This document shows, one piece after another, positions 9,401-50,332 of a DNA stretch of 64,000 bases. The notes beneath the pieces are model-generated. The model saw only the letters and a program-made list of their open reading frames with translations. It searched no databases and had not been told where the DNA came from. Position numbers and translations under genes: made by a program. The DNA is taken from the NCBI GenBank assembly GCA_001899335.1, contig MOYE01000004.1, positions 198,264-262,263 of the forward strand. Reading direction: 5' to 3'. Position 1 is the stretch's first letter. Every line of letters starts with the position of its first letter. The DNA comes from Candidatus Gastranaerophilus phascolarcticola. Lineage in GTDB: Bacteria; Cyanobacteriota; Vampirovibrionia; Gastranaerophilales; Gastranaerophilaceae.

Positions 9401-9748
9401 CGCAACGGCAACAGCGTGTTTACACCATTCATCTTTAAGAGGACAGTTGCAGCGTGCCTCTACTTTATTCTTTTTGAATATCAGGTCTGTATTATACGAT
9501 GCCTGGAAATTTCCTTTAACTTTACCCATATAAAAGTTTTTTTCGGGATATGATTCCATAACCATATCTTTAGTGTAAAGTTCATAACCTCTGCGCCAAG
9601 CGCCGGCACCAGCTTTTTCTTTTACAAATTTATAATTAAATTCTTCAGTCGCCATATCTTCCCTTGCCCCGGGGTAATCTGCTATATGAAAAATTTCCAT
9701 AATACTCGGGGTTACCCATATTATGCCATAACCGTGAAAAAAAAGCAA
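6476..9748 (-). CDS. SNF2-family helicase with N-terminal SWIM zinc finger
   Basis: 1090 aa. SWIM finger CNCPLKDEWCKHAVAV. SNF2 motifs DDMGLGKT, LDESQNIKN and QATDRAYRIGQ. The true start may be an internal Met (MEIFHIA or MATEEF). Confidence 0.9.
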   Translation of the reverse strand: MLFFHGYGIIWVTPSIMEIFHIADYPGAREDMATEEFNYKFVKEKAGAGAWRRGYELYTKDMVMESYPEKNFYMGKVKGNFQASYNTDLIFKKNKVEARCNCPLKDEWCKHAVAVALKAINEHAYEDWLETKYGIETDYPDENTALTEEPTGSYIFHFNSKRKVNFFSILVRSRETGKIVRQIESILRALIETQRQNPDFELNNAQKVEVAIFQQLLTIARQDKKAGWYDIPITKFGPMFSLLAKADEVLDEKTKERLKFTDEEWELSLTVNTGQSGTLLLSLEWERPGKDEIYPFEEVRYFSKHLKWGRYKNIIFPTNIAMQALPANIIKASFTELKDAEGGKFIHEDLPEIQQIMKVNIAENISKLMLEERPPLNVVTLGIDYDQSLKASLEFEYDGVRVPYSKTTGEKVPYITIKKPNEDLVYWIKRNIKHEQEAYNMLLACRFVPMQTNNLALEKENAIDFYNYHIKQAGEGWKFIEKDDMNFFKILDDPFKLCADIDFSKETKDSFEIYLYGRAGEEIVNFDEMYDTIQGGEKYSRIRSLGFVEYPAQDIYGLMRAFNSFDVFRNDENKFIVKTYRAGLINELKNLNVETILSKEFEEFWSQMSSFSTADSTELPKAINAEFREYQQKGFGWLWFMYKYGLNGILADDMGLGKTLQALTVIQKAKDVDGPMPTLVICPTTVVFNWESEIQKFAPELTCLKISGTERKALFKKIPEYDIVITSYALVRRDIEKLKEHNFRYIILDESQNIKNAGSQTAQAVKKLQSTHKLALSGTPIENKLEELWSVFDFLMPGFLFDMHEFNYRYVNPIMERADKIVEKRLKLQIYPFILRRMKRDVAKDLPDKVENIAYCELTDEQRDFYLQVLDSTKEELFKSIEQNGLEKSRLSIFSALLRLRQICCHPRLYDKDNVKHIMSSGKFEKLKVMLEEIISEKHRVLLFSQFVEMLDIVKDWLDRAGIPYSYLTGKTKDRQGAVEKFNNNPHIPIFLVSLKAGGTGLNLTGADYVIHYDPWWNPAVEDQATDRAYRIGQTKKVFVYRLITKNTVEEKIQKLKMFKRNLVDSVISVDRNITKSLTMDDIKEIFSMD

Positions 9749-9751
9749 GTG

Positions 9752-10861
9752 TTAAGATATCTGCCCTTGTTCTATATTGTAGATTTTTACATCGCGAAGG
9801 AATTCTTCCTCAAAATGGATTGTGTCAACGGACGTTATTATAGTTTGAACCCCGGGTTTTATTGATTTTAAAAGGAAGTTCTGCCGAATGTCGTCAAGTT
9901 CTGCTAGCACGTCATCTAAAAGTAATACGGGATTTTCGCCGGTTTTGTCAGTGATGATTTCAAGCTCTGAAAGTTTGAGCGCAAGTACTACTGTTCGCTG
10001 CTGACCCTGTGATGCAAATTTTGTTGCCTCACTGTCATTTATATAAAATAAAATATCGTCACGCTGCGGTCCAACGCACGACTGACCACGACGGATTTCT
10101 TCGTTCATACGCTCTTCAAGCGCAGCTGCAAAAAGACGCGAAATCGTTTCTACATCCTCCTCACCGTTCAAAAACGAGCAGTCATATTGGATTTTTAATT
10201 CTTCACTTTCGCTGATAATTTTATGTTTTTCGCGCGCGATACGCTCAATTTCTTTTAAAAATTTTAGGCGCAAGAAAATTATATTACTTCCGGCAATCGC
10301 CATTTGTTCGTTATAAACACGCAAAAGCGTTTCATCAATATAGTCGCTTTTTAACAAGTTATTTTTTTGGATGCGGATTTTATCGTATTTTGAAAGTCTT
10401 TCATCATAAGCCGGATAAACCTGTGAAATCGCACGGTCGAGCCATTCGCGTCTGTCAGACGGATTGCCGCGCAGCAAAAGCAAATCCGGTGTTGCAAAAA
10501 GAACTGTGCGCAAAACTGATTTGAAATTTTTAGGCGTGGTTTTGAGTGTGTTAACCCGAAGCTCACGTGTTTTTTCGCGGTTGTAAAAAAATGCAAGTTC
10601 TACATCTGCATCGGCTTTCACAACGTCAGAACGAACTTCCACACTTTGGGCATCAAAGTTGATAAGTTCCTGATTATTTGATGTACGCGGGCTTTTCAGG
10701 GTCGATAGAAAATAAACGCTTTCAAGAATATTTGTTTTGCCCTGTGCGTTTTTTCCGATAATCAAAATTTTATCAAACCCTAAATCCAGCGTGATTGATT
10801 TGCAATTTCTATAGTTTTTTAATGTTAAATTCTTTAATCTCACAAATATATAATACTTCAA
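9752..10861 (-). CDS. recF: DNA replication and repair protein RecF
   Basis: 369 aa. Walker A GKNAQGKTNILE, signature SQGQQRTVVLALKL and Walker B VLLLDDVLAELD. Confidence 0.9.
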   Translation of the reverse strand: MKYYIFVRLKNLTLKNYRNCKSITLDLGFDKILIIGKNAQGKTNILESVYFLSTLKSPRTSNNQELINFDAQSVEVRSDVVKADADVELAFFYNREKTRELRVNTLKTTPKNFKSVLRTVLFATPDLLLLRGNPSDRREWLDRAISQVYPAYDERLSKYDKIRIQKNNLLKSDYIDETLLRVYNEQMAIAGSNIIFLRLKFLKEIERIAREKHKIISESEELKIQYDCSFLNGEEDVETISRLFAAALEERMNEEIRRGQSCVGPQRDDILFYINDSEATKFASQGQQRTVVLALKLSELEIITDKTGENPVLLLDDVLAELDDIRQNFLLKSIKPGVQTIITSVDTIHFEEEFLRDVKIYNIEQGQIS

Positions 10862-24553: not shown

Positions 24554-25945
24554 CTAAAAAATTGAGGTGCTGAACTTTATCGCGTCCATAAGTTTTTTTA
24601 CACGGACAATTTCGATTTTGTTATTTTTAACATTATTGGCAAAAGGTATGATAGCTTTTTTAAATCCTGACGCAACGGCTTCGTTCAAACGTTTCTCAAT
24701 ATTATCAACAGGGTGGATTTCACCTGATAAACCGATTTCGCCGATTATTACAGTCTGGCTGTCAACAACAATGTCGTTTGCGCAGGTCGCAATCGCAAGC
24801 GCTATCCCTAAATCCGCACTCGGTTCGTCAACTTCAATTCCGCCCATTACGTTTACATAAACATCTTGTTTCGACAAGTTTAAACCCACACGTTTTTCCA
24901 AAACCGCAAGGATTTGATGTAAACGGCTTAAATCGACTCCGTTTGTAACCCTGCGCGGGCTAGGATATGAAGTGGTTCCGACAAGCGCCTGAATTTCTAC
25001 CAGCAAAGGACGGGTTCCTTCGTTGGTTACAATAATCGCGCTGCCAGGCGTTGAAATCTGTGAACGCTCATTTAAGAAAAGTTCGTTAGGATTTTTGACT
25101 TCTTTTAAACCCAGTGAGTGCATCTCAAAAATACCGACTTCAGATGTGTTGCCAAAACGGTTTTTGATAGAACGCAAAATTCGGTATGACTTATACCTGT
25201 CACCTTCAAAATAAATCACAGTGTCGACCATGTGCTCTAAAACCTTCGGTCCTGCAATGTTTCCGTCCTTTGTAACGTGACCGACGATTACAACCGTAAT
25301 CCCTTTGGTTTTTGCAATATACATTAATAAATTACAGCATTCCCGGATTTGCGAAACGCTCCCGATTGAGCCGGAAATGTTTTGTGAGTAAATCGCCTGA
25401 ATACTATCCACCATAATAAAATCAGGTTTAACCTCATCAATTTCCGCCTTAATTTTTTCCATTAAGGTTTGAGGGTAAATAAACAGATTTTCGTTGTTGA
25501 TTTCCAGCCTTTGGGCACGAAGTTTTAATTGCGATGCGCTTTCTTCAGCAGAAACATACAAAATCTTTTTGCCGGACTTGCAAAGTTCTCCGCTAGTTTG
25601 CAGAAGAATTGTAGATTTGCCAATCCCCGGATCGCCAGCCAGCAGTACAAGCGAACCTTTTACAAATCCGCCGCCCAAAATCCGGTCAAATTCCGAAATA
25701 TTAGTACTTATTCTGACTTCCTGCCCGAGTTCAATATCATTAAGCGGAATGGATTTTTCTTTGTTGATAAATTCATCCGCAATACAATTATTCATTTCTT
25801 TCAACGGTGCGGAAACTTCTTCCTGAAAAGTTCCCCATTGCAAACACTCCGGACACTTTCCAAGGTATCCGGCTGTTTCGTATCCGCAATTTTGACAAAC
25901 CCATTTTGACTTAACCTTTACCATTGATTTTATCCCTAAAACCAC
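24554..25945 (-). CDS. radA: DNA repair protein RadA/Sms
   Basis: 463 aa. Zinc finger CQNCGYE...CPEC, Walker A GDPGIGKST, the KNRFG motif and a Lon-like C-terminal domain. Confidence 0.95.
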   Translation of the reverse strand: MVLGIKSMVKVKSKWVCQNCGYETAGYLGKCPECLQWGTFQEEVSAPLKEMNNCIADEFINKEKSIPLNDIELGQEVRISTNISEFDRILGGGFVKGSLVLLAGDPGIGKSTILLQTSGELCKSGKKILYVSAEESASQLKLRAQRLEINNENLFIYPQTLMEKIKAEIDEVKPDFIMVDSIQAIYSQNISGSIGSVSQIRECCNLLMYIAKTKGITVVIVGHVTKDGNIAGPKVLEHMVDTVIYFEGDRYKSYRILRSIKNRFGNTSEVGIFEMHSLGLKEVKNPNELFLNERSQISTPGSAIIVTNEGTRPLLVEIQALVGTTSYPSPRRVTNGVDLSRLHQILAVLEKRVGLNLSKQDVYVNVMGGIEVDEPSADLGIALAIATCANDIVVDSQTVIIGEIGLSGEIHPVDNIEKRLNEAVASGFKKAIIPFANNVKNNKIEIVRVKKLMDAIKFSTSIF

Positions 25946-27645: not shown

Positions 27646-28398
27646 TTAGTATGGTAAAACTCTTACTACTTTATACGGAATTTTATTTTTTATCAAAAAT
27701 TCGCCCCATTCAATTTGCTCGGGTTTTATGATTTCATTCTTTCGTTTGACTTCAACAAAAATCATTTCCTTATTATTCCACACGATATAATCTGGTGTTC
27801 CGACGGGATTCAGATTATAATCATCTAGCGTATGTTTTAGAATTTTACAAAAAGTTTTATTATTGACTTTTGCTAAAAATTCTTGCACAATGGGCGATTT
27901 AAAATATTTTGTTGGATTTTTATAGCCTTCTATTTCCCACTCATCAAGCCAGCGAATATATGAACCATGCTCGTGCTTTGTAAGTTGGGTGTTGATAAAT
28001 TCTTGAATATTAGATTTCTTAATTAAATTTAATTTTTGATTTAATTCTTCTGAAGTAACATTTTTGTTTTCAATATCAAAAAATTTGATTTCTGATTTGT
28101 GATTCAATGTTTGAGGATATAATTCATCAAGAAAGCTAAGAGCAAAGACCCCTTTCCAGAAAGAATATTCCGTACGCATTACTTGATAACCTTCATTTTT
28201 ATAATGCTCTCTAACAACCTGTTCAGTTGAACATTTTTCTCCATTTGAACAATAAAAATAATTTTTACCAAGTTCTCCTGTTTTCGGTGCAGGAATTGTG
28301 ATTGTATTTTTAGTAATTTTTTTGGACAAAACTTGTTTTGCTAATACGTATTGAGCAAAACATATTAAGATTAAAATTGTTACTAAAAACTTTTTCAT
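27646..28398 (-). CDS. VRR-NUC (PD-(D/E)XK) nuclease-domain protein with N-terminal signal-like peptide, FAN1-like
   Basis: 250 aa. C-terminal GTPDYIVW...IFVEVKRKNE...QIEW matches the VRR-NUC D..ExK..Q pattern. N-terminal MKKFLVTILILICFAQYVLA looks like a signal peptide. Confidence 0.6.
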   Translation of the reverse strand: MKKFLVTILILICFAQYVLAKQVLSKKITKNTITIPAPKTGELGKNYFYCSNGEKCSTEQVVREHYKNEGYQVMRTEYSFWKGVFALSFLDELYPQTLNHKSEIKFFDIENKNVTSEELNQKLNLIKKSNIQEFINTQLTKHEHGSYIRWLDEWEIEGYKNPTKYFKSPIVQEFLAKVNNKTFCKILKHTLDDYNLNPVGTPDYIVWNNKEMIFVEVKRKNEIIKPEQIEWGEFLIKNKIPYKVVRVLPY

Positions 28399-29205: not shown

Positions 29206-30567
29206 ATGAACAAAGATTTTATATTAAAATTAGTTAGACCGCATTTAAACTCAAAAAACGAATTAACTTATTTTGAATTTGAGAATATATTTGGCTCTTG
29301 GAAACGACAAGAACAGTATGAAATATGTGAAATTTTAGAAGATCTGGGAATTATTCTTGTTGATCAAAAAACTGCAGAAGCAAATGACGATAACAATGTT
29401 ACTGAAATTAATAAAAAAAATAAAAAAGAAATTATTATAACAAAAGCTGATATAGAAAATACTACAAGCCATACCAAAGATGGATTTACGGATATTAAAT
29501 TAGATATACACGAAAATTGTGATGAAAGACTTGCTATATTATATCAAAAAACAGATTATAGTTATTATATCGACAAATTAATACAAAAACATGTTGGTTT
29601 TATACGGAAAAGGGTTAATATAATAGGGAGATATTATAATCATAATTTTGAAGAGGAAGAACTTTTACAAATCGCAAAAATAGGATTTATGAAAGGGTGC
29701 AAACGTTTTGATATAAATAAAGGCAAAAATTTATTAACATATGTTGGTTGGTGGATTGATCAAGCTTTATATAGAGAAATTATAAATAATGGTTTTTTAG
29801 TACGATTACCTGTTCATATATGGGATAAAATAAAAAAAGTGACAAAATTTTTATCTTCAAATGATGAAACTGATATAGAGTATTTTTTAGAAAAGGAAAA
29901 CATATCAGAAGCAGAGTATGATGCAATTATTCAGTATCAGCAAAAATATTTAAATCCTGCATCGTTAGATGCTCAAATTGGTAATTGTGAAAATGTAGAG
30001 TTAATTGATGCAATATCTCAAGATGTACACTGTTTTTTAAGTAGATTTGCGGAAGCAGATGAAATATTGGAGGAAAAAGATTTGACAGATCTAATTCGCT
30101 ATATTTTAAATCAGTTATCTGCAAAAGAAAGAAATGTGATGATTTTGCGCTGCGGACTTGATAATAATGGAAGAGAAAAAACATTAGAAGAGATCGGGCA
30201 GCAGTATGGTGTATCAAGAGAAAGAATTCGTCAAATTGAACATAGAGCAAAAGCTAAAATATCAAAAATATTGAGAACAAATATTAATCCGGATGACGAA
30301 ATTATACAAGAGATGAAATCTAATACTCCAATGGAATTTGATAAAAATTATTTCTTTAAAAAGAATAATGTTTCCTATGTTCCGGAATTATCAGAAATGA
30401 TTGATCGTATTATAGATCTTAATAGTCAAGAAGACAATAATGAGAATTTATATGAAAAATTTAAAATTTGTGCCAGTCAAAATGGATATAATATTAAAAA
30501 TCTTAACAAGAAAGATATCTTAAATAAATTTAATCAACGAAAGGATTGTTATGTACGAAATAATTAA
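29206..30567 (+). CDS. sigma-70-family protein (RpoD-like regions 2, 3 and 4) with extra N- and C-terminal regions
   Basis: 453 aa. Region 2: LLQIAKIGFMKGCKRFDINKGKNLLTYVGWWIDQALYREIINNGFLVRLPVHIWDKIKKV. Region 4: LSAKERNVMILRCGLDNNGREKTLEEIGQQYGVSRERIRQIEHRAKAKI. Very AT-rich. Confidence 0.85.
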   Translation: MNKDFILKLVRPHLNSKNELTYFEFENIFGSWKRQEQYEICEILEDLGIILVDQKTAEANDDNNVTEINKKNKKEIIITKADIENTTSHTKDGFTDIKLDIHENCDERLAILYQKTDYSYYIDKLIQKHVGFIRKRVNIIGRYYNHNFEEEELLQIAKIGFMKGCKRFDINKGKNLLTYVGWWIDQALYREIINNGFLVRLPVHIWDKIKKVTKFLSSNDETDIEYFLEKENISEAEYDAIIQYQQKYLNPASLDAQIGNCENVELIDAISQDVHCFLSRFAEADEILEEKDLTDLIRYILNQLSAKERNVMILRCGLDNNGREKTLEEIGQQYGVSRERIRQIEHRAKAKISKILRTNINPDDEIIQEMKSNTPMEFDKNYFFKKNNVSYVPELSEMIDRIIDLNSQEDNNENLYEKFKICASQNGYNIKNLNKKDILNKFNQRKDCYVRNN

Positions 30568-33500
30568 AAAAAATTATACTGACATCAAGTCTGAATTAGA
30601 TTTAGCAAAAGGCATTATTGTACAAAAAGGATTCTCTATCGATATAGAAGATAAAATAGATATACAAAATTTATTCAATAAAGGACTTACTGCAAGTTGG
30701 GTAGAATTATATTCATCAAAGAGAAATATAATAACTTACGAAGAATTTTTATATTTTTACAACTTTATTATTAATGAATATGAAAACATTTATGTAGTTA
30801 ATAATAATATTTATAATAATTTTTATCCATTAAGTGTTGAAATTCCATTGGAAACAAAATTATTATTAAAAGATTTTTTTAGTGAAGATGTTGACGATAA
30901 TATATCTAATGTTCAAATTCTTGATGGCGAAAAATATACAAAAATTTTTTCTAACATAAAAAAAATAAATGAGAATTATTTTGTTAGATATAATGATATT
31001 TTTGAAATTGAAAATATTAAAATTAAAAATATAAATTTGTTCGACGCTGATAATATACAACCTCTGATTACTAAATATAAAGATGAATTATCTTCAGATA
31101 ATGTGTTATTTATACAAGAAACAGAGGATTACCTCTTTGTTTTAGAAAAATTATTGAATAATCAAGAAATATGCGTAAATCTTGATTCATATATCGGAGA
31201 AGATTCGATTAATAATAAACTTCAAATGATATCAACATACATAACTCCAATAACTATAATTAAATTAGAAGATAAAAATGAAGCACTGCAAACTGATCCA
31301 AAATTTAAAGAAATCTTAAAAAAATATTGGAAGCATGATTCTTTTAGAGATTTAAAAGTCTACAACTTTGAAAAAATAAAACATGGCATTAAAGAAATAG
31401 AAAAAATTTCGCAGGAAGACATTATCAGTGATATAGTTAATCAAGTTGAAATATTCAAAAATAATCCACAAGCCGATTATAGAGATATTTTTGTAACCGC
31501 ACCTACTGGAGCTGGCAAATCTGCAATGTTTTATATTCCAGCAATGTATTTAGCAGAGAAATATAATCTTGTAACTCTTGTAATACAACCCTTAATAGGC
31601 CTAATGAACGACCAAGTATCTAATATAGAAAAATTGGGCTATAAATATGCTAAAACAATAAATTCTGATATTTCTCAAATTGAAAAAGAAGAAATTATGG
31701 AAAAAATAAAAGAAGGTAAATGCCACATATTGCATTTATCTCCAGAATCACTACTAGCAAGAAATGATATCTCACAAATAATTGGAAATAGAAAAATAGG
31801 GATGATTGTTATAGATGAGGCTCATATCGTTACAACTTGGGGTAAACAATTTAGACCGGATTATTGGTATTTGGGTGATTACATAAAAAAATTAAGAAAA
31901 AAACAAACAATTGAACTCCATCCTTTTTTAATTACTACTTTTACAGCAACTGCTATTTATGGTGGTGAAGAAGACATGTATAAAGAAACTCTAAATAGTC
32001 TAAATATGCGTTTCCCAATAACCTACTTAGGATATGTAAAACGTGATGATATTGAAATAGAGATATCTGAATTAAAAAAGGAAACAAATAAAGAACAGTA
32101 TCAGCGAGACAAATTTGATTCATTAATTCAGGTAATTAACAGAGCTATTGGAACAAATAAGAAATTATTAATATATTTTCCTACAGTAAAATTAATAGAT
32201 TCTTTTTACACGTACTGTACCTCGAAGGACTTAAATAAATATATTGCACGATATCATGGACAAATGCAGGGCGACGATAAAAAAGAAAATGCAGAATTAT
32301 ATAAAAATAAAGAAAAACTTGTGATGCTGGCAACAAAAGCATTTGGTATGGGGATTGATATTAGTGACATTGAAATAGTTTGCCATTTTGCTCCAACTGG
32401 TAATGTTTGCGACTACGTACAAGAGATAGGAAGAGTCGCAAGAGATCCAAATTTAAAAGGTGAAGCAATATATTCTCATATGTCGAATGATTTTCAGCAT
32501 ATAAATAGGCTTCATGGTCTTTCTGCAGTAAAGAAATATCAATTGATTAAAGTTATACAAAAGGTGTATGAATTATATGAAATAAAATTAAAATCAGAGA
32601 ATTTAGATAATGTTCGTTTATCTAAAAAACGTAATGAAATGCTTGTAGATGCAGAAAACTTTACATATATTTTTGAAGGACCTTTGGAATCTTCTGAAGA
32701 TGAGCTTATCGCAAAAGTTAAAACTGCATTATTATTAATTCAAAAGGATTACACCTCAAAAATGGGCTTTTCACCTTTTGCAATGCGACCTTCAACATTA
32801 TATGCTCAAGGATTTTTCCAAATATCAGATGAGATTGTAGATAATTTAATTAAAAGATATGGTACTTCAACTTTTAAAGTATGTTCTTCAAAACATAAAG
32901 TATATTTAGTTAATTTGCAAAGAATATGGGAAAAAGATTATGGTAAAAATTATTCATTCCCTAATTTTAAGCGTTTATTATATACTTCAGATAAAGAATT
33001 AGAGAGTTACAATTTAAATAAATTAATACCTGCAACTCGCATAAGTTTTGAGTACATTGCAAATGAAACTAGTAGAAGAATTCATAATGCAATTATTAAT
33101 ATTTTGAGAAAATCTGCCTATGAAGATATATTTTTACAAGTCGAATCGAATGGCAAAAAAGATGCAACAAAAAATATTTCTGATTGTATAAGTGTAAGAT
33201 CAGGAATATCAACATTTAAAGCAAACGGAATTGCAAATATTTTAATTTCAACCATAAAAAATTATGCAAGAAATTATAGCAAGTCTATGAACGCTAAGAT
33301 CTTGGATTCACGACCAATAAAAACAGGAACTGATATATATAGATTTAATCGTCCAATAGAAGATTTTATTGAATGGTTAATTGAAATTAAAAGTTTTATA
33401 AGTAACAATGTCGCAGAAGATGGAAAAATTTATATTGTGAGAAATCAATCACAAAAAACAGAAAAAGAAATTATTACAGCATTAGGATTACTTGAAGCAA

Positions 33501-33781
33501 TAAATTATCTTACTTTTGAGGCAAGTGGTGGATTAAATAGCCAAATATATATCTATGTCAACCAAACAAAAACGATGGAAGAAGTTATACGCAAACCAAA
33601 CTTTTATAATAACAGATTGCTTGAAAAAGTTGCCGACAGGCATAAAATATCTGTTGCTATGTTATCCTATTTATATCAAAATGAATTTACAAGTAATGAA
33701 ATTTGGGACTATATTGAAAATTACTTTTTAGGTATTGTACCAGAAGAAGTAATTTCTTTAAGAGATCAGCTAAGGAAGTAA
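30551..33781 (+). CDS. RecQ-like superfamily-2 DNA helicase with large unassigned N- and C-terminal domains
   Basis: 1076 aa. The ATG lies 17 nt inside the sigma ORF, after AAGGA. Motifs TAPTGAGKSAMFYIPAM, VIQPLIGLMNDQV, VIDEAHIVTTWGKQFRPDY, LATKAFGMGIDISD and QEIGRVARD parallel RecQ. I could not recognise RQC or HRDC domains. Confidence 0.85.
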   Translation: MYEIIKKNYTDIKSELDLAKGIIVQKGFSIDIEDKIDIQNLFNKGLTASWVELYSSKRNIITYEEFLYFYNFIINEYENIYVVNNNIYNNFYPLSVEIPLETKLLLKDFFSEDVDDNISNVQILDGEKYTKIFSNIKKINENYFVRYNDIFEIENIKIKNINLFDADNIQPLITKYKDELSSDNVLFIQETEDYLFVLEKLLNNQEICVNLDSYIGEDSINNKLQMISTYITPITIIKLEDKNEALQTDPKFKEILKKYWKHDSFRDLKVYNFEKIKHGIKEIEKISQEDIISDIVNQVEIFKNNPQADYRDIFVTAPTGAGKSAMFYIPAMYLAEKYNLVTLVIQPLIGLMNDQVSNIEKLGYKYAKTINSDISQIEKEEIMEKIKEGKCHILHLSPESLLARNDISQIIGNRKIGMIVIDEAHIVTTWGKQFRPDYWYLGDYIKKLRKKQTIELHPFLITTFTATAIYGGEEDMYKETLNSLNMRFPITYLGYVKRDDIEIEISELKKETNKEQYQRDKFDSLIQVINRAIGTNKKLLIYFPTVKLIDSFYTYCTSKDLNKYIARYHGQMQGDDKKENAELYKNKEKLVMLATKAFGMGIDISDIEIVCHFAPTGNVCDYVQEIGRVARDPNLKGEAIYSHMSNDFQHINRLHGLSAVKKYQLIKVIQKVYELYEIKLKSENLDNVRLSKKRNEMLVDAENFTYIFEGPLESSEDELIAKVKTALLLIQKDYTSKMGFSPFAMRPSTLYAQGFFQISDEIVDNLIKRYGTSTFKVCSSKHKVYLVNLQRIWEKDYGKNYSFPNFKRLLYTSDKELESYNLNKLIPATRISFEYIANETSRRIHNAIINILRKSAYEDIFLQVESNGKKDATKNISDCISVRSGISTFKANGIANILISTIKNYARNYSKSMNAKILDSRPIKTGTDIYRFNRPIEDFIEWLIEIKSFISNNVAEDGKIYIVRNQSQKTEKEIITALGLLEAINYLTFEASGGLNSQIYIYVNQTKTMEEVIRKPNFYNNRLLEKVADRHKISVAMLSYLYQNEFTSNEIWDYIENYFLGIVPEEVISLRDQLRK

Positions 33782-43916: not shown

Positions 43917-46805
43917 TTAGAAGAGGCTTAACTGTTGTGAATTATCTTTTTCTTTGAAAACTTTTTCAAATTTGCTTAAGTTTAAAAGGTCGTTTTCTAT
44001 TTTTTCCAAAAACGGCGAAATCGGTAATTCGCGCATTAATCCCTGCCACTTGCGCTTTTGCGCGCGTGAAAGGAACAAACGTTCTTCCGCACGTGTCATA
44101 CCAACGTAAAGCAATCGGCGTTCTTCCTCAATTTCGGAAGGCTCTTTTGCGCGGTATAGAGGCAAAATTCCGTCCTCAAGCCCTGTGATAAACACGCATT
44201 TGAATTCCAAACCCTTTGAGGAATGCAGGGTCATAAGCGTGATTCTGTCAGCACGTTTGTCGAGGGTGTCAGCTTCAGTTGACATTGAAACCTCGTGGAT
44301 AAAGTCGTCCTTTGCTCTGTGAGTTTTCGCAAGGACAACGAGGAAATTCCAAATGTTATCCTCGATTTTATCGGCAAATTCTTCTTTCAGTGCTGAAAGC
44401 TGTATATCTACATCCTCATCGTTCAGGCATGAAAGCAGCTTATGAACGGCTTTTTTCTCGCAAAGCGGTTCGTTTGAAAGCGCAACGAACGGCATACCTG
44501 TACGCTGCAATGCCTCAATAAGCGGTGGGAGCTGGGAGGAGGTGCGGTAAAGAATAGCAAAATCTGAGAATGAATAATCGCATTCCTGCCCTGTTGAACG
44601 CTCGGAATCTATTGAAAACAGGCTATGTCCGCCGATAAGATTTTCTATCGTACTTGCGACAAATTCCGCCTCTGCCTTGTCCGTCGGTGCCGTGTGAATT
44701 GTAATTTTATCATGCGGCTTTTCATACATCGAAACAATGTTGAACTCCTGAATCATTTGGTTTGACGCATTAACAATGTTTCCTGTTGAACGGTAATTAT
44801 TTTTAAGGTTTATGACTTTCGTCTGCGGATAATCCTGTGTGAAATTCTTGAAAAATTTGGAATCCCCGCCGCGGAACCCGTAAATTGCCTGATTAGGGTC
44901 GCCGATTGCACAAATTTTGCCATCCTCCGGCACCAGCAGGCGGATTAATTTATATTGATTTTCGTCAATATCTTGATACTCGTCCACTGAAACATATTGA
45001 AAACGCTCTCTGTACATTGCCATAATGTCCGGGTTTTCTTCTAAAAGTTTTACAGTTAGAGTGATAAGTTCATCAAACCCAAGAGCGTTTTCATCCGCAC
45101 AAAGTTCTTTTTCCTGTTCGCTCATAACCCTGAAATCCGGGTGCAAGCCAGCTGTTTCATGATTTTCTTTCAGGATTTCAAAGCATAACGAGTGGAAAGT
45201 ATGTATGTTTAAATCCTTTGCGGTTTCGCCCAAAAGTTTTGTTAAACGTTCGCGCATCTCCTGTGCTGCACGGCGCGTAAAAGTTATTGCAAGACAGTTT
45301 GCTGTTTTAAGCCCTGTATCTGAAATCAGGTGTGCAATTCTGCGGGTTAAAACCGTTGTCTTACCTGAACCGGGACCCGCTACGATTAAAAGTTGTCCGT
45401 GCGTTTCGTTCACGGCAGCCTGCTGTTGTTCGTCAAGCCCTGATTTTTTCGGTTTCTCCGGCGTAATAATCTGTGGCTCCACAACAACTTTTGGTACAAA
45501 TTTTTCAACTGTTTGCATTGGGGCTGCCGGCATGTCAATAAGTTTTAAGTTGACGTACTTTTTGTTTACAAGTTCGTCTTCCTCAAACAATTTTATCACA
45601 CCGTATTCGCCGTCATAACCCGCGTGTTTGATAACTTTTCCCTGGCGGAGGCGCGAAATTCCTTCACCCAATAGCGGCGAAATTTTTGTGATATCGTCAA
45701 CAGGAATTTCGCGCAGTATTGAAAGTTCAGAACCCAGTTTTTGCGTAATCCTTTCGTATTCTGTAACCACGGATTTGCTGCCCACGCCAACGCCTAAAAT
45801 TTCGGAGATAATTTCAGGGAGCGGGACGAGGCTGAACACTTGTCCTGCTGTCGCTGGCGGTGTAAAATCGCCTTTGCGGTCAGAAAGTTCATTGACACGG
45901 TATGAAACCCCGATTGTTAAAGGCTTCCCGCACACCGGACAAATTCCGTTGAGAGCCTTTGTCTCTTCAGGTGTCAGGCAAACATTGCATTTTCTGTGCC
46001 CGTCTTCGTGGTATTTGCCTTCTTCCGGGAAGAATTCAACAGTGCCGACGTAGCCGCTGCCGGTTTTCAAGGCGTTCATAATGCTAAAATAATCAGGATT
46101 AGTGTCAAAAACTGTTGCTTCACGTGCAAGTTTTGCAGGCGAATGCGCGTCAGAATTTGACACAAGGCGGAAACGGTCAAGGCGTGATACGTGCCAATTC
46201 ATTTCAGGATCAGAGGACAGCCCGGTTTCTACGGCAAAAATATGGTCTGATAAATCTTCATAGCATTCTTCAATTGAGTCAAAACCTGATTTTGACCCCA
46301 AAACAGAAAACCACGGGGTCCAAATATGCGCAGGGATTATATAAGCGCCATCACCGGATTCAAGTGTCGTTTCAAGCAAACTTCTTGAATCCAACCCTAA
46401 AATAGGTCTGCCATCAGAAGTTATATTACCGATTGCACCGAGTTTTTGTCGGAAATTTTCTGCGCTTTCCAAATTCGGCATAAAACAAACATGGTGAACT
46501 TTACGTGTTTTATCCCATTTTTTGTAAATAGTTGAAATCTCGACTGATAAAATAAATCTTACCGGTTCTTCGTCGGGGTTAAAAATTGTTTTTTCAATAT
46601 CAGGACGAAGTCTGTACGTGCCCTCATCTGCAGGAACAAGTTTTTCTTTTATTTCGTTAAACCATGCAGGATGCGTGAAGTCACCTGTTGAGATGACGCT
46701 TAATCCCTTTTTCTTTGCCCAAAAAGCGAGGTGTTCAAGGTCGCAGTCACGACTGGTTGCACGCGAATATTTTGAATGAATATGTAAATCTGAATAGAAA
46801 AACAT
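43917..46805 (-). CDS. fusion protein: N-terminal PHP-domain/zinc-finger module (endonuclease Q-like) plus C-terminal UvrD/PcrA-type helicase
   Basis: 962 aa. N-terminal part: SDLHIHSKYSRATS, IPAHIWTPWFS, NSDAHSP, CNVC...CPVCG and GYDGEYG. C-terminal part: AGPGSGKTT, TFTRRAAQEM, VDEYQDID, GDPNQAIYGFRGG, NYRS, HSSKGLEF and VGMTRAEERL. Confidence 0.8.
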   Translation of the reverse strand: MFFYSDLHIHSKYSRATSRDCDLEHLAFWAKKKGLSVISTGDFTHPAWFNEIKEKLVPADEGTYRLRPDIEKTIFNPDEEPVRFILSVEISTIYKKWDKTRKVHHVCFMPNLESAENFRQKLGAIGNITSDGRPILGLDSRSLLETTLESGDGAYIIPAHIWTPWFSVLGSKSGFDSIEECYEDLSDHIFAVETGLSSDPEMNWHVSRLDRFRLVSNSDAHSPAKLAREATVFDTNPDYFSIMNALKTGSGYVGTVEFFPEEGKYHEDGHRKCNVCLTPEETKALNGICPVCGKPLTIGVSYRVNELSDRKGDFTPPATAGQVFSLVPLPEIISEILGVGVGSKSVVTEYERITQKLGSELSILREIPVDDITKISPLLGEGISRLRQGKVIKHAGYDGEYGVIKLFEEDELVNKKYVNLKLIDMPAAPMQTVEKFVPKVVVEPQIITPEKPKKSGLDEQQQAAVNETHGQLLIVAGPGSGKTTVLTRRIAHLISDTGLKTANCLAITFTRRAAQEMRERLTKLLGETAKDLNIHTFHSLCFEILKENHETAGLHPDFRVMSEQEKELCADENALGFDELITLTVKLLEENPDIMAMYRERFQYVSVDEYQDIDENQYKLIRLLVPEDGKICAIGDPNQAIYGFRGGDSKFFKNFTQDYPQTKVINLKNNYRSTGNIVNASNQMIQEFNIVSMYEKPHDKITIHTAPTDKAEAEFVASTIENLIGGHSLFSIDSERSTGQECDYSFSDFAILYRTSSQLPPLIEALQRTGMPFVALSNEPLCEKKAVHKLLSCLNDEDVDIQLSALKEEFADKIEDNIWNFLVVLAKTHRAKDDFIHEVSMSTEADTLDKRADRITLMTLHSSKGLEFKCVFITGLEDGILPLYRAKEPSEIEEERRLLYVGMTRAEERLFLSRAQKRKWQGLMRELPISPFLEKIENDLLNLSKFEKVFKEKDNSQQLSLF

Positions 46806-46816
46806 TTTGCTCCCCT

Positions 46817-47296
46817 TTATACTATATATTTTTGTAAAATAAGTTTTTTTAATGCACGAGCATTCACCGCATCAGGCTCAAGTTGAAGAAGTTTTTCAAG
46901 ATATTCTAGCGCAGCGTGGTAGTTTTCAAGTTTTTTCTGAAGAGCCGCCATTGCATAAAGTGCATCAATGAATTTCGGGTCAAGTTCGAGCGCTTTTTCC
47001 AAATCTTCTGCGGTTTTTTGCAAATCAGGATTAATATCTTTTCTTGTGAGGTTTATATAAGCGCGGTTGTAATATGCATCGGTCATACGGGGGTTGAGTT
47101 GAATTGCCTTTGTATAATCAAGCATGGCATCGTCAAATTTTTCGAGAGCCTGCGAAGCAACGGCACGATAAAAATAAGGAATTTCCCAGTCGCGTTTGAG
47201 CTCAATGGATTGATTAATTTTATTAATAGCGTCATTAAACCTTCCGTTTCGTATATCAAATATTCCGTCGTCTAAAAGTGTTTTGTAGTCTGTCAT
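46817..47296 (-). CDS. tetratricopeptide-repeat protein
   Basis: 159 aa with three or four TPR units (e.g. YFYRAVASQALEKFDDAMLDYTKAIQLNP and AYYNRAYINL). Confidence 0.8.
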   Translation of the reverse strand: MTDYKTLLDDGIFDIRNGRFNDAINKINQSIELKRDWEIPYFYRAVASQALEKFDDAMLDYTKAIQLNPRMTDAYYNRAYINLTRKDINPDLQKTAEDLEKALELDPKFIDALYAMAALQKKLENYHAALEYLEKLLQLEPDAVNARALKKLILQKYIV

Positions 47297-47305
47297 AAAT
47301 TTTCC

Positions 47306-48355
47306 TTATTGGTTAATTATTTCATCTATATATTCTTGCCATTTTTTTGTTCTGTAGAAAAGTGCGCGTCTACTCATTCGTTTATAATAAGGGCGTATGT
47401 TTTCATCCGTAATTATTACTTCTTCATATTTGCTCTTAATCTTTTCTGCAAACCTGTTGACAAGTGCATATTCTTTAAATGCTACACCAAGCATTTGAAA
47501 ATCAAAAACCGGTTTTGAAAGTGATTTATACATAATATTCGTAGTGGTTTTTGTTGTCTTGTATATTAAACAGTTTTTGAAAGCATCGTTACCAAAAATA
47601 GTTTTACACAAGTCTATGGAATCCTTAAATTTTTTTCTTAATTCTGCAATATTTTCCTCAATGTATTTTTTATTTGTTATTTCATTTTTTTTTGTCAAAT
47701 AATTATCTAAAAATTCTGCCATATTTCCGTTATAATGGGCAAAATCTTCATAAAGCGCAAGAAAACGCAAAACGTATTCTTCTTTTTCCATTCTGTCTAT
47801 CTTGGAATTATTGAAAAAAGTAGAAAAATTATTATAATTCGCAAGTTCCCGTATTAATTCCGTGTACGGACCATTGTGTATACAGTTCCGTATTTCCTGT
47901 GCATTAAGATGTACGCCCCCGGTATTAAATCGTTCAAATATGTCAAAAATTATTTTTTCATCCTCTACATTTTCTATTATTACAAGGTTTAATATATAGT
48001 TTAGGACTGTATTTTGAATACTTTGCGGCAATTCTTTATAATACAAACCGTTGAACTGTTCATAATGTGACAAACCTTTTAAAGGAAACAGGTTATTCAA
48101 AAAGTTTTTGATAGAAGTTAAGCGTTGCTGTCCGTCAATAACAACGTAGTTTCCCTCTTTTTCAAATAAATATATTGACGGTATCGGGAAAGAAAGCAAA
48201 ATAGTTTCAATTAATTTGCTTGCTTTTTCATTATCCCAAACATAGTTACGTTGAAAAATAGGCTGAATAACAATATTTTTGTTAGATATATATAAATCCT
48301 CGACTGTAGCATTTCTTGTATGCGCATATATTCGATTATAATATTCGACTGTCAT
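47306..48355 (-). CDS. DUF262 (ParB/Srx-like) domain protein without DUF1524/HNH domain
   Basis: 349 aa. QPIFQRNYVWDNEKASKLIETILLSFPIP and the VVIDGQQRLTSI motif. Confidence 0.8.
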   Translation of the reverse strand: MTVEYYNRIYAHTRNATVEDLYISNKNIVIQPIFQRNYVWDNEKASKLIETILLSFPIPSIYLFEKEGNYVVIDGQQRLTSIKNFLNNLFPLKGLSHYEQFNGLYYKELPQSIQNTVLNYILNLVIIENVEDEKIIFDIFERFNTGGVHLNAQEIRNCIHNGPYTELIRELANYNNFSTFFNNSKIDRMEKEEYVLRFLALYEDFAHYNGNMAEFLDNYLTKKNEITNKKYIEENIAELRKKFKDSIDLCKTIFGNDAFKNCLIYKTTKTTTNIMYKSLSKPVFDFQMLGVAFKEYALVNRFAEKIKSKYEEVIITDENIRPYYKRMSRRALFYRTKKWQEYIDEIINQ

Positions 48356-48396
48356 AGGTTTATTATATGTTATCTGATGATTATAGTAAAGGTGTA

Positions 48397-49461
48397 TTAA
48401 GAAATATAATTATCATAAATAATTTTGCCTACTTTATCCTGTAATTTTCGCAGAGCGGTTTTTAAATCCTGTTTACCTGATAATTCAGGGTTCAAAAACG
48501 GGCTCTTCTTAACAAAATTTATGTATTCCAAATAGATTTTGTCTGCGTTACGGCTTACTTCTGCCAAATCTAATTCTGCAAAGCATAACATTTGAATGTC
48601 AAAAACTTTTGATGAAAACGAACTGAAACCATACTTGTCACCCTTTTTCTCCCTTTTATAATTCTTGTAAGCATTGTTTTTAAATACAATTTTACAAGCA
48701 TCTACAGCTTTTTTAAAAGTTTTTTCCAATTCACGGGTTTGTTTCCTAAATTCTTCTGCGGTTAATGAATCTAAATGCTGCTTACTATCATAATACGCAG
48801 TAATGTAATTATTGATGTCGTTTAATGAATATCGGTTATTTTCAAACATTGCTAAAAAGCGTGCTGCAAATTCTTCTTTTGCCATACGTAAACTCTTGTT
48901 TTTGGGAATTAATTCATCGTATGGTGCGTATTTTGCTAAATTATTTTTGATTAAATCGTTAAATTTTCCCTCGAATACACAGTTACGTATTTCTTGCGGT
49001 TTTAAAGTCATAATACCGGTATTATATCTTTCAAAGATTTTGTAAATAATTTTCTTGTCAATAACATTTTTAATACATTTAGAATCTAATGTATAATCTA
49101 AAATTCTGTTTTGAAGTTGTTCATTAAGTTGGTTAAAATAAAAGCCGTTTAGACTTGGAATATCTTTGAGCCCGCTAAGTTTATAACTATTTTTTAAGAA
49201 TTTTCTGATTGCTGTTAACCGTTGCTGTCCGTCTATTACGTAAAATTTGCCGTCAACATGGTGATGATATAAAGAAATTGGCGGTATCGGCAAACCTAAT
49301 ATTATACTTTCAATCAAGCAGCTTGCTTTGTTTACATCCCAAACATATTGTCTTTGAAATGAGGGCTGAAGGACATATTTGTGTTCTTTTTTCTCATCTA
49401 AAAAGTCACAAACTGAAAAGTTTTTATTTTCAACTAATACATTATATTTTTCAAAATCCAT
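48397..49461 (-). CDS. DUF262 (ParB/Srx-like) domain protein, paralogue of its neighbour
   Basis: 354 aa. QPSFQRQYVWDVNKASCLIESIILGLPIP and YVIDGQQRLTAI. Colinear similarity to the neighbour along the whole length. Confidence 0.8.
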   Translation of the reverse strand: MDFEKYNVLVENKNFSVCDFLDEKKEHKYVLQPSFQRQYVWDVNKASCLIESIILGLPIPPISLYHHHVDGKFYVIDGQQRLTAIRKFLKNSYKLSGLKDIPSLNGFYFNQLNEQLQNRILDYTLDSKCIKNVIDKKIIYKIFERYNTGIMTLKPQEIRNCVFEGKFNDLIKNNLAKYAPYDELIPKNKSLRMAKEEFAARFLAMFENNRYSLNDINNYITAYYDSKQHLDSLTAEEFRKQTRELEKTFKKAVDACKIVFKNNAYKNYKREKKGDKYGFSSFSSKVFDIQMLCFAELDLAEVSRNADKIYLEYINFVKKSPFLNPELSGKQDLKTALRKLQDKVGKIIYDNYIS

Positions 49462-49540
49462 TTTATCTCCTTTCCAATGTCTAATTCTTTATATCATAGA
49501 ATGGCGCCTAACTTCAACAATGTATTGTTGGGTAAATATC

Positions 49541-49578
49541 AAAAAAAGACCTTTTTTATATCTAAAAAGGTCTTTTTA
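49541..49578. terminator. bidirectional intrinsic terminator
   Basis: AAAAAGACC...GGTCTTTTT is a stem flanked by A and T runs, 23 nt past the stop of CoA-transferase subunit B. Confidence 0.75.
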
Positions 49579-49600
49579 ATAATTTTAAAATAAATTAGGA

Positions 49601-50332
49601 TTATATTTCCATTAACTTGACATTTTCGCTGACTTTGAAGTCTGCGGTTACACTTGCTTTGATATCGTCAATCGTAAAGTGCGGATTAACTTCGGTCAGA
49701 ATAAGTCCGTCAGGAGTTACTTCAAATACACAGCGCTCGGTGATGATTAAATCAACTTCACGATATGCTGTTAATGGTAATGTGCATTTTTTCAGAATTT
49801 TCTTTTCGCCCTTTGAAGTGTGTTCCATCGCAACTATTACTCGTTTTGCGCCAACAACCAAATCCATTGAGCCGCCCATTCCGGGGATTAACTTTCCTGG
49901 AATCATCCAGCTTGCAATACTTCCCTCTTCGTCAACCTGCAATGCGCCCAAAACTGTTGCGTCGATATGACCGCCGCGCATCATTGTCAGTGCAGTTGCG
50001 GAATCAAAGAAACAAGCACCCTCTTGCACCTCAACCAGCCCGCCGCCTGCGTTGATAATATGCGGGTCGGGGTTAGCCCCGCTTTGGCTTTTTCCAATTC
50101 CTAAAAGCCCGTTTTCGGATTGGAAAATTACGTGTTTTTCTTCTGGAACATAATCCGCTGCAGCTGTTGGAAGCCCAATACCAAGTGTGACTACATCGCC
50201 GTCTTTAAATTCTTTTGCAACACGTCTTGCAATAATTTCTCTTATTTGCTCTTTGGTTAGAGCAAAATCGCTTGAACGCTGGTATTGTTGTTCAATTTTG
50301 TCTTGTAGCGCTTGATTGATTGTTAAATTCAT
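49601..50332 (-). CDS. CoA-transferase subunit B (3-oxoacid/acetate CoA-transferase family)
   Basis: 243 aa. VTLGIGLPT and the catalytic-Glu SENG motif (FQSENGLLG). ATGA overlap with subunit A. Confidence 0.88.
   Translation of the reverse strand: MNLTINQALQDKIEQQYQRSSDFALTKEQIREIIARRVAKEFKDGDVVTLGIGLPTAAADYVPEEKHVIFQSENGLLGIGKSQSGANPDPHIINAGGGLVEVQEGACFFDSATALTMMRGGHIDATVLGALQVDEEGSIASWMIPGKLIPGMGGSMDLVVGAKRVIVAMEHTSKGEKKILKKCTLPLTAYREVDLIITERCVFEVTPDGLILTEVNPHFTIDDIKASVTADFKVSENVKLMEI

Follow-up and report, generated by a model that had tools for sequence, protein, structure and literature searches.

The window analysed here, a 64,000-nucleotide (nt) stretch of the genome of Candidatus Gastranaerophilus phascolarcticola (contig MOYE01000004.1, positions 198,264 to 262,263), carries two adjacent DUF262 genes on its minus strand, which we call D1 (the upstream paralogue; 48397-49461, 354 amino acids) and D2 (the downstream paralogue; 47306-48355, 349 amino acids). 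Together with a hairpin and a promoter-like element of their own, the two genes make up an autonomous cassette some 2.3 kb long (roughly 47297-49600), inserted into a slot that in related strains is either empty or occupied by a known type of defence gene. Each protein combines a ParB-DUF262 NTPase domain with a helical ParBDB DNA-binding domain and has no nuclease domain, and sequence comparisons mark the pair as a rare tandem form of a known type of sensor, one with no recognisable effector. By analogy with characterised two-gene DUF262 systems, we consider it reasonably probable that D1-D2 is an autonomous heteromeric NTP-dependent DNA sensor of the defence type, with an effector step that would be nuclease-free or supplied in trans.

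A cassette in the atoA-TPR slot

D1 and D2 are followed on the same strand by a TPR gene (46817-47296, 159 amino acids) and a gene for a fusion of an EndoQ-like PHP domain (TIGR00375/MJ0043_C) with a UvrD helicase (43917-46805, 962 amino acids; PHP-UvrD below), the gaps between successive genes being 41, 9 and 11 nt. The original prediction, drawn from the letters alone, had this layout and the identities of the two downstream proteins right, as judged by open reading frame (ORF) coordinates and domain matches, and had proposed that the four genes form a modification-sensing defence operon. The PHP-UvrD match to TIGR00375 scores 175 bits, below the family cut-off of 326.6. Upstream of the pair, on the minus strand, lies atoA (49601-50332), an ORF for the B subunit of a CoA-transferase, with Pfam CoA_trans matches in syntenic loci.

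Loci for comparison came in part from two scans. A full-length-alignment scan of a genome collection, with a generic DGQQR pattern, gave only distant relatives (no more than 40% identity) among the matches listed, and these were used as controls. For close contexts, metagenomes were scanned with an alignment of the C-terminal domain. Loci are referred to below by L numbers.

An empty version of the insertion site is found in L109-L111, where PHP-UvrD is 87% identical to that of the window and the gene order is atoD-atoA-TPR-PHP-UvrD-membrane protein-UbiA-gdh. Only 5 nt, with no terminator between, separate the atoA stop codon from the TPR start codon at these loci, and the window TPR is 89% identical to the TPR that directly follows atoA in L109. 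The pair-bearing arrangement atoD-atoA-D1-D2-TPR-PHP-UvrD of L001 is syntenic with the window, and in L120 the pair occupies the same site (D1 70% and D2 74% identical to the window) on a contig that ends within D2. Between the window and L001, atoD, atoA, TPR and PHP-UvrD are 83-89% identical (88-89% for the last two), whereas identity falls to 54% for D1 and 61% for D2, and this contrast suggests that the pair and its flanks have different evolutionary histories.

The same slot holds other cargo elsewhere. In L112, L115, L116/L117 and L118/L119 (86-94% identical), a Fic gene encoding 375-386 amino acids lies between atoA and TPR (L112 6830-7957; L115 5381-6508; L116 5321-6451; L118 4784-5944). 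The L112 copy matches the PADLOC SoFic model at 1.6e-87, and SoFic is a known single-gene defence system. The Fic proteins are mutually 56-93% identical, and their cassettes, like the DUF262 pair, are AT-rich (G+C content (GC) of 0.31-0.34 compared with 0.39-0.41 for the loci). A stretch of about 550 nt in front of each Fic gene contains a small antisense ORF (44-53 amino acids) and its own hairpin. Alternative cargo thus occupies a variable slot at the atoA-TPR junction, TPR and PHP-UvrD being resident genes, and we regard this junction as a single-slot defence hotspot in Gastranaerophilales.

The boundaries of the cassette are visible at the sequence level. The atoA stop codon is kept in all strains and the sequence diverges immediately downstream of it; next in order, in the window as in L001 and L120, are a hairpin, a promoter-like block, a Shine-Dalgarno sequence and D1. 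The hairpin (49543-49577, minus strand), which the original prediction had listed as a terminator upstream of D1, consists of a perfect 14-bp stem with a loop of 7 nt, is flanked on each side by T-runs, and forms the upstream edge of the cassette just past the atoA stop. The pair-bearing L001 and L120 also have it, whereas the empty site of L109 does not. Between it and D1, the block at 49488-49517 (minus strand) looks like a sigma-70 promoter with an extended -10 element, comprising a putative -35 hexamer TTGAAG (49517-49512), an 18-nt spacer and TGaTATAAA (hexamer 49493-49488). This block is kept as TTGACG...GGCGCC...TGtTATAAA in L001 and as TTGCCG...GGCGCC...TGcTATAAC in L120. A GGCGCC palindrome in the spacer (49494-49511 in the window, minus strand) is strictly kept in the three strains despite diverged surroundings, and could be an autoregulatory operator. 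At the other edge, the 9 nt after the D2 stop codon lead directly to the TPR start codon. We found no target-site duplications, terminal inverted repeats or flanking direct repeats around the cassette, where the only repeats are the hairpin and those derived from the paralogy of the two genes.

Base composition sets the pair apart from its neighbours. GC is 0.298 for D1 and 0.293 for D2, compared with 0.373 for TPR, 0.433 for PHP-UvrD and 0.367 for the window as a whole, and only one block among the window's 31 large ORFs, at 29206-33781, exceeds the pair in A+T content. The hand counts that had first suggested a foreign origin (11/60 G+C at 47641-47700 and 33/60 at 45361-45420) are exact. Because of the empty site in L109-L111, the low GC and the cassette's own terminator and promoter-like element, the pair appears to have been acquired horizontally and inserted in front of older genes, as the original prediction had suspected.

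The proposal that D1, D2, TPR and PHP-UvrD constitute one split defence system, in which the DUF262 proteins would detect modified DNA and leave the effector role to the PHP nuclease and UvrD helicase, fared less well. The local arrangement is suggestive: four co-directional, tightly spaced genes with no terminator-like site found between D2 and the PHP-UvrD gene. The hairpin would stop atoDA transcripts and shield the cassette from atoDA read-through, so that TPR and PHP-UvrD, now separated from atoDA, probably depend since the insertion on read-through from the cassette promoter. Co-transcription of all four genes is therefore likely in this strain, and looks like a by-product of the insertion; the tight spacing and operon appearance exist because the cassette landed there. 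UvrD-type helicases are found in defence systems, PHP-UvrD has GajB-like PADLOC matches, and the four-gene arrangement is kept in L001, with L120 showing the pair after atoA.

The original prediction had itself named an absence of conserved linkage in other genomes as the outcome on which this idea would fail, and we find pair-TPR-PHP-UvrD linkage only in L001, that is, only among strains with the same insertion. TPR and PHP-UvrD occur without the pair both in L109-L111, directly after atoA, and in L115-L119, where the order is SoFic-TPR-PHP-UvrD. Conversely, the pair recurs without TPR or UvrD in L003, L006, L092, L094, L095/L096 and L098: phmmer searches detected no TPR or PHP-UvrD homologue within 10 kb of the pair in the non-syntenic loci, which represent at least six contexts. 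The residents also differ in history from the pair, being of normal GC and well conserved in L001. All 8000 scored candidate homologues of PHP-UvrD had E <= 1e-30, and the 120 listed, one of which is named Candidatus Gastranaerophilales, were 73-99% identical; PHP-UvrD is a core gene of Gastranaerophilales, a gut Melainabacteria clade. It would as such always be available in trans, a point in favour of cooperation with D1-D2, though homologues at 74-76% identity lie among different genes, with TPR and the pair both missing. For want of conserved linkage the four-gene split system is largely refuted, and we now consider it quite improbable. The case carries a methodological lesson, in that a single insertion can create tight spacing and co-orientation with a striking neighbour, and comparison with an empty site resolves the matter. 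Within the PHP-UvrD family, TPR precedes PHP-UvrD only in the subclade at 85% identity or above; the fusion itself might join a lesion-specific endonuclease to a helicase.

The contexts in which the pair recurs are diverse. It lies between a nitroreductase gene and PolX in L003-L005, after a MerR gene in L006-L011, after an ABC transporter in L094, between prismane and NIF3/CoaBC genes in L095/L096, and before a metallo-beta-lactamase-fold gene and AlaRS in L098. In L092 it adjoins a type I restriction-modification system (S and M subunits) and an AAA_14/DUF4143 gene, and in L097 a single-copy family member adjoins a KAP NTPase and HpaII. The GC of the pair is below that of its own locus in every context examined. 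A scan of viral contigs gave two weak matches only (27-28% identity) and no sign of phage carriage. Two candidates for additional cassette components were set aside. The genes downstream of the pair in L003 (231 and 192 amino acids) have no Pfam or PADLOC match and hydrophobic, signal-peptide-like N-termini, and are probably unrelated; the BFN_dom gene after the pair in L006 is 260 nt away, has no PADLOC match and is not found in other pair contexts.

Architecture and ancestry of D1 and D2

D1 and D2 are colinear paralogues, as predicted, with 38% identity over their full length (E 3e-71). Both contain the DUF262 motifs FQRxYVW, IDGQQRLT and FERxNTG, and a family alignment shows the QR..W, DGQQR, FxRxNTG and EIRNC motifs intact in each. 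The Pfam GmrSD_N/DUF262 match (PF03235; 1.5e-25 and 8.3e-32 for the two proteins) is restricted to the N-terminal halves, in agreement with the earlier statement that both proteins lack the DUF1524/HNH half of the corresponding nucleases. The PADLOC scan that the original prediction had suggested returned matches of the defence type, to NsnA over the full length (PDLC03877; D2 2.5e-78, D1 3.5e-65) and to PD-T4-2_A (D2 2.2e-44, D1 5.3e-37), but no complete system with its partner genes. Domain searches also gave a weak DndB/DGQHR match for D1. D1 and D2 thus stand as ParB/Srx DUF262 proteins of the defence type that lack a nuclease half.

The full-length NsnA matches also identify the C-terminal halves. 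A helical ParBDB DNA-binding domain has been described for NsnA and is common to the middle domains of SspE, GmrSD and DndB (PMC12065111). Since both proteins match NsnA throughout, their C-terminal halves are ParBDB domains and not of an unknown kind; the architecture is that of the sensor module of Menshen NsnA, PD-T4-2_A, SspE and GmrSD. An AlphaFold2 model of D2 (pLDDT 87) searched with Foldseek gave BrxU (7p9k), SspE (6jiv) and ParB-CTP structures as top PDB matches, and also returned ParB, Noc and KorB. The TM-scores do not exceed 0.34 because the domain arrangement differs. Foldseek added nothing on the C-terminal domain beyond the published ParBDB assignment, and a family-profile sequence search of the PDB gave marginal N-terminal matches only.

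Database searches with D2 return relatives in two tiers. In the first are DUF262-only proteins, few in number and 350-390 amino acids long. The second consists of proteins of about 440-460 amino acids that align over some 92% of D2 and carry an additional C-terminal HNH domain (PF01844). This extension of about 70 amino acids, with the pattern CxxC...DH...N...H...CN, begins exactly where D1 and D2 end (P0036, P0041, P0054, P0074). It is found in none of the short-family members aligned, and the close short-family relatives listed for either protein are all without PF01844. Proteins resembling D1 form an equally small set that never carries an extra domain.

In a neighbour-joining tree the HNH forms are the outgroup, the downstream (D2-like) members form one clade and the upstream (D1-like) group stands apart, with the order D1-then-D2 retained. 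Mean identity is 45% among upstream members, 50% among downstream members and 37% between the two groups. The separate grouping of upstream and downstream members means that the duplication is old, and the tree suggests that D1 and D2 have lost the HNH domain carried by the outgroup DUF262-HNH enzymes. Two motifs distinguish the short family within ParBDB, namely KEE(Y/F)xxRF (D2 residues 191-198) and (F/Y)DxQML (D2 residues 284-289). Both are nearly invariant in D1-like, D2-like and single-copy members, and HNH-bearing relatives have DRxLVLRF and FQxxxTS in their place. These motifs are candidates for a new activity or for a heteromer interface.

Loss of a nuclease domain raises the question of whether D1 and D2 are decaying, non-functional remnants of a duplicated DUF262-HNH type IV restriction gene. 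The HNH domain of the outgroup is missing from both copies, and signs of decay do occur in individual loci. In L002 (8837-9930) the upstream gene is split into ORFs of 304 and 77 amino acids; L003_up (8837-9940) has the degenerate motifs IQRLDAW and MDGKQRLS; and L098_dn (9488-10531) has lost its QR, DGQQR, NTG and EIRNC motifs. The presence of one degenerating partner in some pairs suggests either a functional asymmetry of the subunits or decay in some lineages. As an account of the pair itself, however, decay is very improbable. Both ORFs are intact in the window, L001, L003-L011, L092-L096, L098 and L120, the catalytic motifs are kept, KEE(Y/F)xxRF and (F/Y)DxQML have been gained in ParBDB, and the cassette has spread across several distinct loci. 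The ratio of nonsynonymous to synonymous substitution rates (dN/dS) is 0.05-0.33 for both genes wherever dS is unsaturated, which places D1 and D2 under purifying selection; between the window and L001 dS is saturated and the ratio is uninformative.

An exhaustive profile search of 1.84 billion representatives places the short family in only seven clusters at 50% identity, above about 365 bits. The wider DUF262-ParBDB superfamily numbers 2268 representatives with an E-value of 1e-30 or below, and 19,938 if the limit is set at 1e-3. The only source names seen for relatives are Gastranaerophilales or Gastranaerophilaceae, a close DUF262 relative being named Candidatus Gastranaerophilaceae.

Comparison with known DUF262 systems and possible function

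The nearest outgroup by sequence is provided by single-gene DUF262-ParBDB-HNH enzymes (PF03235 and PF01844; 'ParB-like and HNH nuclease domain' or McrA-like). These share 33-38% identity with D2 over about 92% of its length, the QR/DGQQR/FxRxNTG/EIRNC motifs and the helical ParBDB. Unlike these enzymes, which are encoded by single genes in L012-L020, D1 and D2 are duplicated, lack the HNH domain and carry the KEE..RF and D.QML motifs. A further resemblance is to GmrSD, BrxU and SspE, which also have an N-terminal DUF262 NTPase and a middle helical domain and include the top structural matches 7p9k and 6jiv. Those proteins are single polypeptides of 560-770 amino acids with a C-terminal DUF1524 domain, whereas D1 and D2 end with ParBDB, and sequence similarity to them covers only about the first 60 residues. 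In enzymes of this type the DUF1524 His-Me finger nuclease can be fused or be a separate GmrD protein; no match to DUF1524 or HNH was found in D1, D2 or the adjacent genes.

Menshen NsnA resembles D1 and D2 in joining ParB-DUF262 to ParBDB without a nuclease. In Menshen, as set out by Li and colleagues in 2025 (PMC12065111), the genes for the NsnB ABC ATPase and the NsnC effector come after NsnA. The D1-D2 cassette has a second NsnA-like paralogue in place of NsnB and NsnC. NsnB is an ABC-type ATPase (DUF3696), and NsnC has an inactive PIN domain and a toxin domain; the system has reportedly also been described by Millman and colleagues in 2022. We found no NsnB gene downstream of D1 and D2 or at any pair locus, while the same search detected NsnB after a true NsnA in L038 (5.5e-87). 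Nor is the NsnC effector found as a third gene, the third and fourth genes being the resident TPR and PHP-UvrD. The PADLOC NsnA model matches the HNH-fused L012 protein at 2e-94, more strongly than D1 or D2, and a match to it therefore reports an architecture rather than a system.

PD-T4-2, a combination of DUF262 and HEPN proteins that Vassallo and colleagues are said to have described in 2022, is likewise a two-gene cassette with a DUF262-only sensor protein. The partner in the D1-D2 cassette is a second DUF262 protein rather than a HEPN RNase, and no HEPN partner flanks the pair in the window. The distant controls L024-L041 include PD-T4-2-like loci in which Rx4H partners of about 158 or 260-285 amino acids directly follow the DUF262 gene. 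We observed such distant DUF262-only genes, with downstream partners of 153-177 or 260-285 amino acids, in L024, L027, L028, L030, L032, L033, L035, L036, L037, L039 and L041. The partner genes overlap the DUF262 gene or follow it with a gap of at most 35 nt, and the proteins contain an NR(H/N)x(I/V)AHG (Rx4H, HEPN-like) motif, each size class forming a homologous group. None of the eight Rx4H partners scanned gave a PADLOC match to PD-T4-2_B, and these loci may be diverged PD-T4-2-like systems missed by current models.

NsnA and PD-T4-2_A are the best PADLOC matches for both D1 and D2, which could be taken to mean that the pair belongs to Menshen or PD-T4-2 and that the partner genes lie elsewhere in the genome. 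We give this explanation very little credence. NsnB, NsnC and HEPN genes are absent next to the pair in all pair contexts, the same approach finds NsnB in L038 and the Rx4H HEPN partners of PD-T4-2-like genes, and the NsnA model has the stronger match to L012 already noted. Because NsnB, NsnC, HEPN, DUF1524 and HNH are all lacking, the pair is neither Menshen nor PD-T4-2, GmrSD or a DUF262-HNH enzyme. To our knowledge, every characterised DUF262 defence protein passes its signal to an identifiable effector, be it DUF1524, HNH, HEPN or NsnB/NsnC.

The best functional analogy for D1-D2 would be TgvAB and GrwAB of Vibrio cholerae, GmrSD-like type IV restriction systems directed against phages with modified DNA, which also consist of two adjacent DUF262 genes with DGQQR in each and intact NTPase motifs. 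Each system depends on both of its genes for defence, and the two proteins have been proposed to act as a heteromeric complex (10.1101/2024.04.05.588314; PMC12137116). In GrwAB an NTPase-site mutation in either protein abolishes defence. TgvB and GrwA carry a DUF1524 His-Me nuclease, unlike D1 and D2, which have no specific sequence match to these proteins beyond the DUF262 domain.

Our preferred reading, a defence-type DNA sensor, is supported among other things by the slot shared with SoFic, the type I restriction-modification neighbour in L092 and the KAP NTPase and HpaII neighbours in L097. D1 and D2 would form a heteromer, as is thought for TgvAB and GrwAB, that would bind foreign or modified DNA with NTP binding and hydrolysis as the switch. 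The restrictive step might be nuclease-free, by way of an NTP-gated clamp that occludes DNA or of runaway NTPase activity. Alternatively, it might rely on an intrinsic DNase activity of the ParB fold or on an unlinked host nuclease. A precedent for the first option is ToxB, a ParB-fold ATPase toxin that acts without a nuclease (10.64898/2026.05.05.722872).

A narrower version of this proposal, in which D1-D2 is a complete nuclease-free anti-phage or anti-plasmid system and the ParB-fold NTPase heteromer is itself the effector, is possible but rather unlikely. Here, an NTP-gated clamp would silence foreign or modified DNA or block its replication, or runaway NTP hydrolysis or nucleoid compaction would lead to a ToxB-like abortive infection, and the acidic KEE..RF and D.QML motifs would serve the new activity or lie at the heteromer interface.

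Several points weigh against the sensor reading. No effector of any kind was found at the pair loci, and the mechanism is for this reason conjecture. Most pairs are embedded in housekeeping genes and not in typical defence islands. A regulatory role is within the reach of DUF262-type proteins, as the example of DndB shows, and with so tiny a family, whose source names are confined to Gastranaerophilales and Gastranaerophilaceae, lineage-specific non-defence roles are possible. L099 and L100 carry a D2-like gene as a single copy, with no partner remnants found beside it, and a heteromer is thus not obligatory for the wider family. Finally, non-adjacency elsewhere is compatible with cooperation between D1-D2 and PHP-UvrD in trans, PHP-UvrD being a core gene.

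Some of these points would be explained by a non-defence role, in which the small mobile cassette would supply a DndB-like transcriptional regulator or a ParB-like factor for the nucleoid, for partition or for maintenance. Neither protein has an effector domain, housekeeping genes surround many pairs, ParB-fold NTPases are often clamps or regulators (Foldseek returned ParB, Noc and KorB), D1 has its weak DndB/DGQHR match, and the GGCGCC palindrome would fit an autoregulatory operator. We nonetheless judge this role unlikely. The pair shares its slot with SoFic and is patchily present among near-identical genomic backbones, combines a low GC with a faster divergence than that of its flanks, and has neither dnd/ssp modification genes nor a plasmid or phage backbone nearby. 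Its closest relatives are HNH-fused enzymes of the restriction type, PD-T4-2-like pairs and Menshen.

If the D1-D2 cassette proves protective, as the sensor reading would have it, it would represent a ParB-fold NTPase that restricts DNA without a dedicated nuclease, or would reveal a host partner that acts in trans. The gut Melainabacteria, a little-studied group, would in that case also gain a defence system.

A second AT-rich block in the window

The block at 29206-33781 (plus strand), the only one more AT-rich than the pair, has a GC of 0.26 and a third-codon-position GC (GC3) of 0.16-0.17. It encodes a 453-amino-acid protein with sigma-70 regions 2 and 4 and a partial PADLOC MzaA match (6e-23). 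The gene for this protein overlaps that of a 1076-amino-acid DEAD/ResIII helicase, which matches PADLOC C3a193 ('possible alternative Cas3') at 1.5e-145 and is also DpdF-like. The block looks like another horizontally acquired two-gene cassette of the defence type. Upstream of it on the minus strand lie genes for a 250-amino-acid VRR-NUC protein (27646-28398) and a RadA/Sms-like protein with KaiC/AAA_25 and Lon_C domains (24554-25945).

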